This document shows positions 3,280 to 60,048 of a stretch of 64,000 nt of DNA, piece after piece; positions within the stretch are counted from its first letter, which is position 1; each line of letters starts with the position of its first letter. The position numbers were made by a program, and so were the translations under genes. The notes under the pieces are model-generated. The model saw only the letters and a list, made by a program, of their open reading frames with translations. It did no database searches and was not told where the DNA came from. The DNA is from Octopus sinensis (lineage: Eukaryota). Where the stretch lies: assembly GCF_006345805.1 (NCBI RefSeq), contig NC_043000.1, positions 44,764,001-44,828,000 on the forward strand, read 5' to 3'.

Positions 3280-3737
3280 TCTTAACAAAACACACGTTTT
3301 TGCTCGATTAGTGAAGGTTTATACCAGCGTTTTAGGAAAAAGTCTCTATCGCGCCCAGATTAATTTTTGTGGGGGTGGGGGAAGAAAGATGAACGATTTA
3401 AAATAAATATCTTATTTGTTGTATGAGAAAGTATAGAGATTCTAATGATAAAACATAGTATCATTCAAAAACATCCTAAATTTATAGACTATATCTTGTG
3501 TGTTTAAGAAAAAAAACATTTTACAGAAATAAATTTTACTTGGTTCGTTATTAAATATAGATATAGATATATACATAGAGAGAGAGAGAGAGAGAGAGCA
3601 GAGAATATGACATCCTTCAACTTTCTTCTCCCGCCCCTCTCACAAAACAAATTAGTTTAAGCGCGAAAGAGTTTTTTTTTCTAAAACGCTGGTATAAACC
3701 TCAACTAGTCGACAAATAAAGTGCGTTTTATTGAGAC
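3280..3737. repeat. Degenerate inverted repeat (MITE-like or transposon subterminal region)
   Basis: ggtttataccagcgttttag (~3316-3335) is the exact reverse complement of ctaaaacgctggtataaacc (~3681-3700). Weaker complementarity extends over ~110-bp arms. Confidence 0.7.
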
Positions 3738-3816: not shown

Positions 3817-3880
<64 letters not shown>

Positions 3881-4059
3881 GTAAGAAAAATAAGTTGGCT
3901 AGCAGCAAGCTGTTTCGCCTCATACCGAAGGAATTAGAAATGGCAGTCAAAGACCGTTTTTTCCATTTCTATAAGTGGAGATTCCAAAAACGAAGGCCCT
4001 TGCGGCTCACATACACAAAACCGGAGTGGCAAATATACGAATTCAGTCACTTACCGTTA

Positions 4060-4132
4060 ATAGCGAACACGGTGTTTCTGGATCACAAACATATAAAAAA
4101 AAGGGGAGTTTGAATTCCGTCATCAGCGCTAT
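4060..4132 (-). ncRNA. Minimal type-I hammerhead ribozyme motif (family A, left arm)
   Basis: Reverse complement of the 4692-4762 motif. tcatcag (CUGAUGA) at 4120-4126; stem I atagcg/cgctat. Confidence 0.75.
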
Positions 4133-4691
4133 ATTCGATAGTTTTATCAAATGCCACCGGCCCTCACTTCTGACCCAGCGACATCAGATAGTGGGGGGAA
4201 GTGCGCAGATGTTAAAACCAAGTAACGACTGGGAACGTAAATTTTCCCTCCAAAATTCTGCCATGCGCGCCTTCTGGGTAATCGTAATGGAATGAGGAAT
4301 CCACATGGTAATACAATAAAAATGGTAAATAATTTTCCTGTGGTTTTTCATGTAACCAACAATTATTTACCGGTAAATTTAGGTATGTAAATACGACAAA
4401 ATAATTGTCAAGACCTTTGTAAGGTTCAGTATATAGTAAAGAAAAATAAGTTGGCTAGCAGCAAGCTGTTTCGCCTCATACCGAAGGAAAATTATTTACC
4501 ATTTTTATTGTATTACCATGTGGATTCCTCATTCCATTACGATTACCCAGAAGGCGCGCATGGCAGAATTTTGGAGGGAAAATTTACGTTCCCAGTCGTT
4601 ACTTGGTTTTAACATCTGCGCACTTCCCCCCACTATCTGATGTCGCTGGGTCAGAAGTGAGGGCCGGTGGCATTTGATAAAACTATCGAAT

Positions 4692-4762
4692 ATAGCGCTG
4701 ATGACGGAATTCAAACTCCCCTTTTTTATATGTTTGTGATCCAGAAACACCGTGTTCGCTAT
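4692..4762 (+). ncRNA. Minimal type-I hammerhead ribozyme motif (family A, right arm)
   Basis: atagcg (stem I) - CTGATGA 4698-4704 - stem II gga..caaac/gtttg..tcc - GAAA 4744-4747 - stem III ACAC-c-GTGT - T - cgctat (stem I). Predicted cleavage triplet GUU after 4756. Confidence 0.75.
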
Positions 4763-5111
4763 TAACGGTAAGTGACTGAATTCGTATATTTGCCACTCCG
4801 GTTTTGTGTATGTGAGCCGCAAGGGCCTTCGTTTTTGGAATCTCCACTTATAGAAATGGAAAAAACGGTCTTTGACTGCCATTTCTAATTCCTTCGGTAT
4901 GAGGCGAAACAGCTTGCTGCTAGCCAACTTATTTTTCTTTACTATATACTGAACCTTACAAAGGTCTTGACAATTATTTTGTCGTATTTACATACCGAAA
5001 TTTACCGGTAAATAATTGTTGGTTACATGAAAAACCACAGGAAAATTATTTACCATTTTTATTGTATATATATATACACAATATAAATGTCACATTCTCT
5101 AATTCTCTACA

Positions 5112-5273
5112 GGCGTAGGAGTGGCTGTAGGGTAAGGAGCTTGCTAACCAGCCACATGGTTCCGGGTTTAGTCCCACTGCGTGGCATCTTGGGCAAGTGT
5201 CTTCTATTATAGCATCGGGCCGGCCAAAGCCTTGTGAGTGGATTTGGTAGACGGAAACTGAAAGAAGCCCGTC

Positions 5274-5340
<67 letters not shown>

Positions 5341-5551
5341 TTGTGTGTGTCTGTGTTTGTCCCCCTAGCATAGTTTGACAACCGATGCTGGTGTGTTTAT
5401 GTCCCCGTTACTTAGCGGTTCGGCAAAAAGAGACCGATAGAATAAGTACTGGGATTACAAAGAATAAGTCCCGGGGTTGAGTTGCTCGATTAAAGGCGGT
5501 GCTCCAGCATGGCCGCAGTAAAATGACTGAAACAAGTAAAAGAGTAAAGAG
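5112..5551 (+). mobile_element. tRNA-derived SINE, family 1, with internal (TA)n(TG)n
   Basis: Pol III A-box-like tggctgtagggtaagg, B-box-like ggtttagtccc, and tail aaagagtaaagag. Near-identical copies at 24248 and 34032. Confidence 0.9.
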
Positions 5552-5583
<32 letters not shown>

Positions 5584-5691
5584 ATATAAGAGTGAAAATT
5601 GAATATTAATTTGATTGATACCAATTTAAAACCATTGGCCTAGCTTATTGAAAGATCGGAAGATTCAGAAAAATTATATTGCATACATATA

Positions 5692-5813
5692 TGAGAGATG
5701 GACATTAAGTGGATATCCATTACACTAGAGGTAGACCCTAAATCTTTTCTTAGTGGTCAGACCATATGTGGTCTACCTCTAGCATAATGGATGCCCACTT
5801 AGTGGTCATTCCT

Positions 5814-5814
<1 letters not shown>
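5692..5814. repeat. Imperfect hairpin between (TA)n tracts
   Basis: ctagaggtagacc (5725-5737) pairs with ggtctacctctag (5770-5782), extended by aagtggatatccatta / taatggatgcccactt. Confidence 0.75.
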
Positions 5815-5849
<35 letters not shown>

Positions 5850-17507: not shown

Positions 17508-18735
17508 CCATGTTTGACTTTTGCTTTACACTTGCATAAGCTGGCTCCAAGTCTCACCTAGAGACCTCAAGAGACAACAGGTTGGAAGTTCGTGTTAGTG
17601 GTATGCCTAGGGTGCTATATATTTGGTTTTGTATTTAGTGTTGTACTAGTGAATGCCTAAAAAACCATACGAAAATTATGTTTGTCTTAAAACTTGAGAT
17701 TACATAGCAAGTATTTTGCGTAGGATATGAGCAGTTCCCATGAGCACTATCTTTTGAATTTCTGCCATTTTGGGGTTTCCTGGTATCTGAGTAAGGGAGC
17801 AATCAGCCCCTTTTGCTATCATTCCCAGGGCACCTATGACAACAGGTACTGTTTTAGTCTTCAGGTTCCACATTTTGCTGATTTCTGTTTCCAGATCTTT
17901 ATATTTGCTCAGTTTCTGGTAGCTCTTGACAGATACGTTTACATCGATTGGGACAGTCATATCAATGAGGAGGCATGTTTTTTGTCTGATGTCTTTTACT
18001 ATTCTGGCCTATTCGCGTCTATCTTTCTGTCAGTTTGAATGGTGAAGTTCCAGAGGAGTGAGATGTAGTCATTTTCAAGCACTGGAGGTGGTTTGTGTCC
18101 CCACCAGTTTTTATCATGGGGCAAGTCCAAGCTTTCGCAAATAACCCAGTGAATATATTGTGCAACTCTATCATGCCTGTTGAGATACTCTGTAGGCGCA
18201 AGAAGGCTGCACTTGGAGACAATATGATCAATGGTTTCATTTTGTTGTTGACATACACGACATGTTGGGCTACTGGTGTTCTTTAATACGTTGGCCTGGT
18301 AGTTCCTTGTAGGCAGGCATTGATCTTGAGCTGCTATGATAAACCCTTCTGTTTCAGATTTTAAGCCAGAGGCTATTAGCCATTGATGGGTCAGAGCTTT
18401 GGCAACATCTGCATTATTCGCTCTCTTTGGGTATTTGCCATTGAGAGGTTTTTCTTGCCATTTATTATTCAGAATATATAAGGCCGCAGTTTTGGCACGG
18501 GTTTTCATGCGCCTAGCTTTTTCTGTGCTTTTTTCGTGTATGTCTAATTCCGAAATTTGTTGTATCCGGGATTCACTTAGATATTCCTTTGCCTGTTTTG
18601 ATACTGAGTATGATGCTTTCTTATTTTCACGTTTTAACATCCAGTCCTCAGAGACACGTTTTAACATCCAGTCCTCAGAGTTTTTCAGGTAGGTGTCTAG
18701 GCCATTGTAGCAATCTTCATTGTTTTTGCCAGTTC
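17508..18735 (-). mobile_element. R4/Dong 5'-truncated copy (subfamily B)
   Basis: ORF 17999-18667 (ETEGFIIAAQDQCL, CRVC..ETIDHIVSKC, DANRP) and ORF 17700-17960 (KLSKYKDL..MGTAHILRK). Its 3' UTR differs from subfamily A. Confidence 0.92.
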
Positions 18736-18761
18736 TAAAACTCCACGGCCTCCCTCTTTTC

Positions 18762-18783
18762 TTCTTCTTCTTATTATTTTCTT

Positions 18784-18814
<31 letters not shown>

Positions 18815-45570: not shown

Positions 45571-48500
45571 TAGTTTTATTTTTATAGCGTGCTTTCACTT
45601 CACTACCGAGCGCAGCTCTGTGCGCATAAGGTATGTGCTGTGATTGTTGTGATGCTCTGATGGTTATTGTATGGAAAGTGTTCTGCGAAGGATTGTGCAG
45701 TGCCTAGTAGTGCAATTTTCTGTATGTTATTGTGTTTGTAAGTCCAGGTGTTTTTGTTATGTATTTGTCTGAATATTTTTTATCATGCCTAATGCACCTA
45801 CTATATAGAAATTGTTTGTTTTTGGATTCCACATTCTGGTTACCTCTATTTCCAGGTCTTTGTAATTTGAAAGTTTCTCCATTTCTTTTAGAGACACGCT
45901 GTCATCTGCTGGTATTGATACATCAATTAGAAAGCATTTTTTTCCTTCGTGATCTCTGACAACTATATCTGGTCTGTTGGCCTTAATTTCTCTATCAGTG
46001 TGTATTGGCATATCCCAGAGTATGGTTGCTTTCTCGTTTTCTGTGACCTTTTCTGGTGTGTGCCTATACCATCTTTTTTCTGTTGTTATTCCATAATGTT
46101 GGCATAGCTTCCAGTGTATGTAGGTTCCAACTCTGTCACGTCTGTGAATATATTCCTTCTTAGCCAGGACTGGGCAGCCAGAGATAATATAATTTATTGT
46201 TTCTTGTCCATCTCCACATATTCTGCAGTTACTTGTTATATTTCTTTTCATTACATGTTTTTGGTAATTTCTAGTGGGGAGGCTTTGGTCTTGTGCTGCA
46301 ATTAAAAATCCCTCTGTCTCTGCTTTGAGTCCTGAGCTTCTCAACCATTGCTGGGATTTTTCTTTGTCTATTTCTTTTGCGTTTAGTTTAGTCCAGTATT
46401 TACCATGAAGGGGCTTTTCTTGCCATCGTTTTATCATGGTTCGTTGCTGTTCTAGTTTTAGTTTGGATTTCATTTGTTTTATAGCTTTTGCTGTTTTTTC
46501 ATCTTCTTCTTCTTCATATTTATTAGGTGGTATGATTTCTTGTTTGTATTTGTCAGTTTCCTTAAATACTGAGAACAGTTTTTTATTTTTCTCGTGTTTT
46601 GCCGCTATTTGTATCAGTTTTCCTTCCTTCTGAAGTAAATATTTTTGTAGTCCTATGGTGGTTATTTTGTAGTAGTTTTCCAGCTGTATATGGCCTCTAC
46701 CACCTTCTATACGTTGTATATATAGTCTTTCTATGTCAGATTTTGGGTGATGCATCCTAGATCCTGTCATTATTTTTCTTGTTTTCCTATCTATTTTGGT
46801 CAGTTCATTTAGGATATTGTCCAGTTAAGGATATTGTAGCTGTAACTTATAACTGGGACAGCTAAAGTGTTGATACCTATTATCTTGTTTTTAGCATTGA
46901 GCTCTGTTTTTTGTATTGATCTAACTCGTCTATAATATTCTTTTCTTATTTTCTCTTTCATTTGTGTGTGGTGTGTCTTATCTAATTCATGGATTCCTAA
47001 GTATTTGTAAGTTTGGCTTTGGTCTAATGTTCCAGCTGTTTGACATTTGCAGCGTATAGTTTTAGGTCATCCATATATAAAAGGTGGCTGATCGTTTCGC
47101 CGTAACACATTTATATCCGCATCCAGTTCTATTTAGCATATCAGATAGAGGTGACAGTGCAAGCAGAAAAGGAGTGGAGAGAGCGTGTCTCCCTGGAATA
47201 TTCCTCTTCTAATAGGGATGGCTTGGTTTTCATGAGTCCTCTTTTTGTTTGGAGCTGTAGCACTGTTACCATTTATTCATAGAGTGCCCTATGAATTTTA
47301 TAATTCTTGGTGCTACTTTGTTAATGGCTAGTGTTTCGAGGATCCATGTGTGGGGGATGCTATCAAACTCCTTTTTGTAGTCGATCCAGGCCATACTGAG
47401 GCCTTTCTTCTTTCTGTGGCTGTCTTCAGTTATGGCTTTATAAATAATTAGTTGATCTTTACAGCCATATTAGCCTTTGCAACATCCTTTCTGCTCTTCT
47501 GGAAACAGGTTGTTTTCGTCCAGGTGCTTGTTCAACGTTTGCGATATCACTGCAGTAAATGCACTGTACATGTAGGGAGACAGGTTAATGGTCTGTAGTT
47601 TCTGGTTTTGCTGTCTTATTTGATTGGGAATTAAGATGGTTTTTCCTTCGTGAGCCATTCAGGCATTGTCTCTGGCTCTGCTAGTATGTTGTTAAAGATT
47701 TCAGCCAGCTTTTTGTGCATTCTGTTAGATATTTCAAACAGAAGTTGGGGATCTTGTCATACCCAGGTGCCTTCAGTTGCCTAGATTTTGCAGTGCCTAA
47801 GTGACCTCTTCAGTTGTTATGGGGGTCCAAAGTTGCTCAGATGCTGAGTTGTTGTTTTGATACTCCTTTTTTTTTGGTTGTTCGCTCGCCGACCATATTT
47901 CTCTCCAGAATTCTTCCACTTCTTCTGCCGTTGTGCTGCAGTGATTTCTATTTTATTTTTGCCAAATTCTGGTGGACTTTTTGGGGTTGGAGTTGAATTT
48001 TTGTTATGGTCAAAGAAGCGCTGGCGTTTCTCGTACCGGCGGATCCTTTGTGCTTTGGCAAGGATATCTTGCTTCAGCTTTTCTTTTATCTCAGGTAATC
48101 TTTTTCTGTGATGTTATATTTGCGGAGTATTTTTGTTTTCTTTTTGTTGCTCAGTAGCGTTGATTGTCTTCTGATTTCATTAAGAATCGACAGATATTTT
48201 CTCATTTTTTTTTTTTTTGATGTTATTTATCCACAGGGTTTGTTTGGGTGGTGGTACACCTGTTTGGATGGATTTGAGTGAGTATCCATCTTCTTTTGTG
48301 GCTGCAGTGGCTGCTGCGTATACTAAGTCATTTAGCTCAGTGATATCGCTTTTTGTTTCAGTGGCTATTAGTTCCGTGACACCTAGGTTTATGCTGTTTA
48401 TAATTGGTGTTGTTGTTTCGTCTATTTTGATTTTTGGGACTATGGTCGGTGGTCCATTTTAAGCTCTGTGGTTTTCAGTTCTTTGATTATTTTACTTTTT

Positions 48501-59979: not shown

Positions 59980-60048
59980 TGATAGAACTCCGAGTTTCGG
60001 ATGTTGAAGTGGAGGTGGAAACCCACGCCGACATCTCTTCAGCTATCA
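59980..60048 (-). ncRNA. Minimal type-I hammerhead motif (family C)
   Basis: Minus strand: TGATAG - CTGAAGA - GATGT...ACATC-c - GAAA - CTC g GAG - T T - CTATCA. Predicted triplet GUU. Confidence 0.78.

Follow-up and report, generated by a model that had tools for sequence, protein, structure and literature searches.

The window, a 64,000-nt stretch of Octopus sinensis contig NC_043000.1, contains an insertion built from two inverted copies of one unit of about 555 nt. The first arm (3881-4489, sense on the minus strand) holds 1.1 units with a period of 556 nt, and runs from unit position 502 at its 5' end to a fixed 3' end, site A, where it adjoins a (TA)n run (3818-3880). The second arm (4485-5067, plus strand) holds 1.05 units with a period of 554 nt, and runs from unit position 97 to a second fixed 3' end, site B, which likewise lies in (TA)n (5065-5076). 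The inverted two-arm structure described in a first-pass annotation of this DNA is confirmed, with 46 other loci following the same plan, as is its placement within (TA)n, since TA repeats bound the insertion at both ends. The copy in the window is a typical A+B insert, that is, one arm ends at each site.

The arms meet at an asymmetric junction (4485-4489), where unit positions 502 and 97 come together across a microhomology of five nucleotides, AGGAA, rather than the four (ggaa) first reported; the location of this junction varies between loci. Each arm is terminally redundant. In the left arm, 51 nt are repeated exactly (3883-3933 and 4439-4489), or about 55 nt if a 1-nt indel is allowed, in keeping with the earlier figure of ~55 nt, while the redundancy of the right arm is 29 nt (4485-4513 and 5039-5067) and not the ~27 nt previously given. 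Between the arms we found a single substitution, a run of A8 against A6, and a one-base difference in the run of A at the left end, which bears out the claim that the two differ by one substitution and homopolymer indels.

Each arm has one hammerhead, as had been noted, and both cores were located by a pattern scan. In the second arm, the predicted minimal type I hammerhead (4692-4762, plus strand) has a stem I formed by 4692-4697 with 4757-4762, a core at 4698-4704, GAAA at 4744-4747 and a near-palindromic stem III at 4748-4754, with cleavage predicted after 4756 (GUU). Its counterpart in the first arm (4060-4132, minus strand) has its core at 4126-4120 and a predicted cleavage site after 4066. 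Further downstream on the plus strand lies a motif found across a clan of sister families (4889-4901), the 5' strand of a predicted stem whose complement (4991-5003) lies within the tail, a segment of 125 nt that extends from site A to site B (4943-5067). The internal copy of site A falls between the two strands of this stem (4937-4948); the fixed end is after 4942 and is followed by TATATA, which could pair with a (TA)n primer. No match to a Penelope-like element (PLE) protein was found in the 64-kb window, in agreement with the earlier observation that the element lacks a reverse transcriptase (RT) coding sequence.

Several other features lie in the window. Imperfect inverted repeats beside TA runs (3280-3736 and 5683-5824) are possibly older two-arm mini-inserts. 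Repeats between TA runs at 5108-5270 and 5330-5550, the second of which recurs in the flanks of other loci, are presumably SINE-like. Two minus-strand open frames, of 355 aa (45760-46824) and 270 aa (18002-18811), gave no match to PLE queries, and we take them to resemble retrotransposon remnants.

The hammerhead and the stem around site A

In control scans the hammerhead pattern returned 0-2 matches per shuffled window and 4 in 20 shuffles, and a further hammerhead-like pattern at 60042 (minus strand), which belongs to another family, may be a chance match at this rate. Rfam gave no hammerhead match at E ≤ 1 in the window, its matches there being hairpin and TA artefacts, and local folding of the hammerhead region alone was unremarkable (z = -0.66). 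Within the family, variation is concentrated in the hammerhead loops, with one lineage having a stem II loop that is 10-11 nt shorter, and stem III occurs as CACCGTG, CACGGTG, CACGTG and CATATG. When six sequences were aligned, 98% of cells were able to pair and 7 of 10 base pairs were changed on both sides, a value reached by none of 500 shuffles and compared with 0-2 in slid controls; these six were picked by hand, and relatedness can beat shuffles without any structure. With that limit, covariation across the sister families supports a predicted minimal type I hammerhead fold.

In its extra base after A9 with G-C next to it, its palindromic stem III and its long, variable stem II, the hammerhead resembles the minimal PLE type, rather than a canonical type I hammerhead with contacts between loops 1 and 2. 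In the unit's own copy, an extra A precedes G12 and the triplet is GUU, a slow one for cleavage. Minimal hammerheads of the PLE type have been described as cleaving weakly, and only as dimers (PMC4209133). The ribozyme in this unit looks weak, and its self-cleavage is a prediction from sequence.

The clan motif upstream of site A occurs 1435 times in the genome and marks the sister families. Their hammerheads lie about 100-135 nt upstream of the motif and have different stem I sequences, and in one sister family C3-G8 is swapped for U3-A8 (L204 at C1:5.03 Mb, and L172-L174). The motif is predicted to pair with a complementary stretch of the tail (in several of these families 83 nt downstream), enclosing site A, and we infer that this stem is a putative RT binding element. 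Folded as a circle, the unit from cleavage site to cleavage site reaches -151 kcal/mol (z = -4.6 against 60 shuffles), with sites A and B in unpaired, U-rich stretches of the predicted structure. The antisense strand also folds well (z = -2.7), and a possible Pol III B-box can be seen on it by eye.

The clan as a whole (L171-L220, L002, L046, L053 and L138) shares the hammerhead, the motif, the tail and the pairing of a short with a long end, and periods of 526, 566 and 583 nt were seen among its members. Many sister copies are short palindromes, which would pass for MITEs. Among the distinct two-arm loci of sister families, 9 of 10 pair a short with a long end, as judged by eye.

A family with two fixed 3' ends

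In the 2.72-Gb genome, the family has at least 141 DNA matches of 86-100% identity (40 of 1013 candidates scored), and two exact core patterns have 108 and 134 copies, with none for the reversed controls. From the listed family matches and the core-pattern places we tabulated 82 distinct loci, a sample that leaves out eight unlisted matches and the extra places from a later core-pattern search, and that is biased towards young copies that include the hammerhead. Two arms joined 5'-to-5' make up 47 of these loci; another 31 consist of a single arm, and the remaining 4 are complex. In all 47 two-arm inserts the 3' ends face outward and lie in (TA)n. These ends fall at two fixed sites, A at unit position 555, followed by TATATA, and B at position 125 of the next unit, 125 nt further on. 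The two-arm loci comprise 33 with A+B, 1 with B+B, none with A+A, 10 with B and an odd end, and 3 with A and an odd end, several odd ends also lying at TA-like motifs. A and B are thus paired in 33 of the 34 inserts with two canonical ends, where a proportion of 0.49 would be expected (P = 1.4e-9). The one-arm loci end at A in 24 cases and at B in 7.

The 5' ends are far less regular. Arm lengths range from 23 to 2707 nt, and the junctions mostly overlap by 0-8 nt, a few having up to 8 extra bases and one a BLAST overlap of 16 nt. No two junctions are alike among the 47 two-arm loci, and no shared 5' flank reaching the element was found among the 31 one-arm loci. Head-to-tail arrays extend to 4.9 units without an ORF between units; some, such as those at C3:71.80 Mb, C1965 and C19:8.16 Mb, have 3-4 copies of the core spaced ~555 nt apart. 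The longest ATG ORF on the unit circle has 55 aa in the sense and 94 aa in the antisense direction.

At seven or more site-A ends (L010, L026, L104, L117, L124, L133 and L138), the last 11-12 nt before the TA run are repeated, as though the primer had moved backwards and the first part of the template had been copied again; these ends recall telomerase realignment.

The fixed ends change how the layout is to be understood. The first-pass annotation had taken the two start points for permutations of one monomer, such as reverse transcription around a circle or multimer with one template switch would give. They are instead the family's two fixed 3' ends, and two separately primed cDNAs joined 5'-to-5' provide a better fit, because the 3' ends face outward in 47 of 47 inserts and 33 of 34 pair A with B. 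By itself, this layout is as compatible with a linear multimer as with a circle. The broader proposal, of a young, non-coding, hammerhead-bearing mobile element of the retrozyme or Penelope kind, is supported. The genome-wide monomer search that was also proposed yielded the two fixed 3' ends and the tandem arrays tabulated here, with no linkage to PLE ORFs found; copies in the form of pLTRs attached to Penelope ORFs, which would have made this an ordinary PLE fragment, were searched for across the loci and not found.

Turning to candidate partners, the genome holds young elements encoding RT and GIY-YIG in open frames of 775-784 aa. Several PLE families are young, some copies being near 100% identical (L061-L068 and L221-L236), and several of those with frames of 775-784 aa have an overlapping upstream frame of 280-479 aa. 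Homologues of the 781-aa frame pointed to no usable clade, and the elements are Neptune-like by the CxxxxCxxC motif before the endonuclease, an assignment that rests on this motif rather than on a tree. In the 775- and 780/781-aa families, those 3' ends that could be seen lead into (TA)n, and the 3' region of the 781-aa family yielded no hammerhead. A BLASTN comparison with 66 PLE stretches (50 plus 16 GIY-YIG stretches, drawn from 150 of 5029 and 144 of 16871 candidates scored) found no extended sequence shared with the unit or the motif, but only short or incidental matches, such as one of 28 nt inside a PLE RT gene (E ≥ 0.037). Using tblastn, a PLE remnant was found in one family stretch (L119), where it ends about 1.4 kb from the element. 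Motif matches near PLE remnants (L046, L053, L172 and L225) were considered as pointers to a partner and rejected as separate sister insertions.

Template and mechanism of insertion

Four sequencing runs were assembled over 4345-4888, the RNA type of three of them (X1, X5 and X6, among 14 datasets taken for RNA, none of them recorded as such) being a guess. X1 and X5, which come from two studies with two organism labels, each gave one 585-nt contig, corresponding to 555 nt plus a 30-nt overlap, with one haplotype. These contigs each close into one 555-nt loop, a hint of a circle, and the same closed contig could result from a tandem array or a read-through transcript. X6 gave fragments with one dominant haplotype, and X16, whose type is off record and which behaves like genomic DNA, gave 470 fragments. 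A core variant shared by X1 and X6 (two studies) has no copy in this assembly, a finding that a polymorphic source locus, or a different population or species, explains more simply than the RNA-level lineage considered below. Where one haplotype dominates a run, matching arms need not come from one molecule.

Among 258 aligned pieces of the genomic copies, compared with homopolymers masked and ends trimmed, a substitution also seen in at least three other loci was carried by every unit of its locus that covers the position in 134 of 146 cases. Two of the 12 mixed cases look real (L114 and L026), the others involving gaps, run edges, arm ends, a third allele or recurrence in an unrelated lineage. 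At L153 and L155, what looked like mosaics over unit positions 363-365 were rejected as alignment artefacts. In addition, 21 variants private to one locus among the 82 are common to all units of that locus, and several of them span both opposite arms, including G294A in the window insertion. Altogether, the 50 multi-unit loci carry 37 distinct all-unit haplotypes. A>G/T>C changes account for 11 of the 21 insertion-wide private variants versus 19 of 118 single-unit variants (P = 7e-4), and for 32 of 65 when lineage variants are added (P = 4e-6). In our reading, the insertion-wide variants arose as errors at an RNA or RT step further back and became fixed by passing through one unit. Assembly polishing could blur differences between units, though 118 single-unit variants survive.

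At four loci (L116, L029, L097 and L125) the haplotypes mix the markers of two lineages and are uniform per insertion, which may reflect recombination or template switching between lineages. The idea that L124 is a read-through copy of L116 was rejected, as their haplotypes differ and so near a match arises in 44% of permutations.

The cleavage site provides further evidence. With a cut linear monomer as template, no arm could be longer than 186 nt (A) or 311 nt (B). This template was rejected since most arms exceed these lengths and cross the cleavage site (49 of 60 for A, 42 of 52 for B) without a scar: positions 366-375 vary by 0-0.7%, with no indels or extra bases in 146 spanning pieces. 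Nor was a pile-up of 5' ends seen there (365, 367 and 370 among 125 ends). A second arm made by folding back and copying the first cDNA was also rejected, because neither arm of the window copy contains the other.

Taken together, the uniform haplotypes, the private all-unit variants with their A>G/T>C bias and the scar-free crossing of the cleavage site argue for a single-unit, probably circular, template. A ligated circle is the best reading, as it explains the haplotypes, the long scar-free arms, the unique junctions and the lack of a 5' flank in one step. The circular template of the first-pass annotation is therefore retained as the best guess, on the strength of haplotypes, scar-free sites and closed contigs, and not of the permutations from which it was argued. 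Overall, we lean towards a circular RNA as the template. Very probably, the family is mobilised by a Penelope-like element and works like a non-autonomous Penelope element, and it is more likely than not that the window insertion is an ORF-less non-LTR retrozyme, whose self-cleaved and circularised RNA was reverse-transcribed in trans by a PLE RT/GIY-YIG protein.

From what can be read in the sequences (the family, its two fixed ends, A+B pairing, the (TA)n target, the covarying fold and the uniform haplotypes), we infer the following series of steps. A source with two hammerheads would be transcribed, cut to one 555-nt unit and then ligated. The PLE protein would bind the conserved stem around site A and nick both strands of a (TA)n run, after which TA-like microhomology would help one nick to prime at site A and its partner at site B. 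Both cDNAs would then circle the template with strand displacement and stop at random, before their ends were joined via 0-8 nt of microhomology. Where a single nick was primed, the cDNA end would join (TA)n directly, yielding a one-arm copy. A bolder and rather doubtful extension is that a single circular RNA serves two Penelope RT active sites, which prime at A and B and pursue one another along it, such that each insertion would be the record of one molecule, and that the circles form a lineage changing at the RNA level, possibly through RNA-to-RNA copying, which the genome only samples. We raise it because of the A>G/T>C bias of the insertion-wide variants and the dominant X1/X6 haplotype with its assembly-absent core variant.

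The strongest competitor to a circular template, unlikely but to be taken seriously, is PLE twin priming at A and B on an uncleaved linear multimer from a source array, with uniformity achieved via short insertions and DNA-level tandem duplication or conversion, and with a ribozyme that is weak or has some other job. The main substrate of a lizard PLE is reported to be uncleaved RNA (PMC11167929), and Li et al. (2026; bioRxiv 10.64898/2026.07.22.740005) favour local amplification of a pLTR-derived unit. In our data, nine private variants are shared by a subset of units, mostly neighbours (L004, L148, L151, L155, L157, L158 and L160); DNA-level duplication or conversion can therefore also rebuild arrays, by which route a linear multimer can regain uniformity, and the two loci that look mixed (L114 and L026) are in line with this. 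Such a history would, however, call for at least 37 separately homogenised sources among 50 loci, and would have to accommodate 47 junctions with no two identical and 31 one-arm loci with no 5' flank reaching the element. Moreover, variants common to opposite arms cannot arise by tandem duplication, single-unit variants have no A>G/T>C excess, and large arrays of one lineage (L157, L144, L159 and L143) lack, by eye, a common single-unit substitution.

A bottleneck through a single unit could also arise without an RNA circle, if RT jumped precisely from the 5' end of a cut monomer back to a 3' end, or if a one-unit DNA circle were transcribed into a uniform multimer. Although uniform haplotypes and closed contigs would be explained equally well, we think this improbable, since the cleavage site is free of indels and extra bases in 146 pieces, with no 5' ends piled up there, and since a DNA circle would not explain a conserved, covarying ribozyme. 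The view that these are ordinary 5'-truncated pLTR fragments of an autonomous Penelope element draws on genuine PLE traits (the tail, inversion, partial tandem, minimal hammerhead and (TA)n target), but is largely refuted, and very improbable, given arrays of up to 4.9 head-to-tail units without an intervening ORF, a PLE remnant by only one family stretch (L119, ~1.4 kb away) and a longest sense ORF of 55 aa. Finally, an assembly or chimeric-read artefact is scarcely credible as the origin of the inversion: although the listed read contigs leave the 4485-4489 junction unbridged, which is uninformative either way, the junction lacks symmetry, three differences separate the arms, and 47 two-arm loci obey the A+B rule, as would not be expected of an artefact.

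Relation to known systems

The operational definition of a non-LTR retrozyme requires two or more consecutive units in tandem, every one carrying a complete type I hammerhead, whether canonical or minimal (Li, Clavereau and Pollet 2026; bioRxiv 10.64898/2026.07.22.740005). The family belongs here by virtue of its arrays, the window copy having one hammerhead per arm, and falls outside the narrow, canonical-hammerhead sense of the term (Cervera and de la Pena 2020, PMC7229834). Within the open literature, we found no description of this family or of the A+B pairing rule.

That a circle is reverse-transcribed to tandem cDNA, with mobilisation by PLEs, is a stated hypothesis in the Discussion of PMC7229834, and how PLEs make inverted, tailed insertions is a task named as open in PMC8557442. 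The family bears on both questions, circles as RT templates with PLE mobilisation and the origin of inverted or tailed PLE insertions, by providing countable genomic footprints: the two start sites are divided almost strictly between the target strands, and each insertion has a single haplotype. A small, young RNA, probably expressed, is available as well; its start sites are defined, its stem is conserved, and intact candidates for the RT/endonuclease genes exist in the genome. Both questions are therefore open to an in vitro assay of the type used for the lizard PAc protein described below, in which a circular is compared with a linear template.

Plant LTR retrozymes are likewise non-autonomous and hammerhead-processed, and have a circular RNA intermediate such as is proposed here. 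However, they are described as having a type III hammerhead in LTRs, PBS/PPT, a 4-bp TSD and Gypsy machinery, whereas the unit has a type I arrangement, permuted tandem ends and ends of the PLE type; a TSD is unreadable inside (TA)n. The non-autonomous Chlamys elements, for example MRC1 (PMC8557442), resemble the family as non-autonomous PLE derivatives with pLTRs and multicopy head-to-tail insertions. Elements of the MRC1 kind generally share 3' sequence with an autonomous family, whereas none was found for the unit in 66 PLE stretches, and most Chlamys are reported there to be without hammerheads.

With the metazoan non-LTR retrozymes (PMC7229834; Li et al. 2026), the family has in common ORF-less tandem units, each with a type I hammerhead, and co-occurrence with PLEs, and its 555-nt unit lies inside the 51-972 bp range given by Li et al. 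It differs in that its hammerhead is of the minimal PLE type with a palindromic stem III, whereas the proven producers of circular RNA are described as canonical, and in that its copies are mostly dispersed short inserts, over half of the sampled ones being inverted. Fixed ends, inversions and per-insertion haplotypes are absent from the available text of these two retrozyme accounts, as is the word 'inverted' from the main text of PMC7229834.

In the manner of its insertion, the family is closest to the PLEs, although the unit has no RT and GIY-YIG ORF, as an autonomous PLE would. PLEs are described as forming partial tandems with an inverted, 5'-truncated copy and an optional tail of 30-40 bp at one end (Craig et al. 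2021, PMC8557442), which compares with a 125-nt tail here. In the account of Frangieh et al. (2024, PMC11167929), the purified lizard Poseidon protein PAc cuts both target strands, extends them, and initiates RT at a pair of internal sites on either side of the tail, with uncleaved RNA as the dominant substrate and ribozyme mutants that still insert. PAc is reported to have no strand difference in vitro and to start at non-homologous sites, whereas the family splits its two sites between the arms almost without exception, and has ends with TA-like microhomology. Common to the family and these elements are partial tandems, 5' inversion, a tail at one end, two internal RT starts, the extension of both strands and a microsatellite target.
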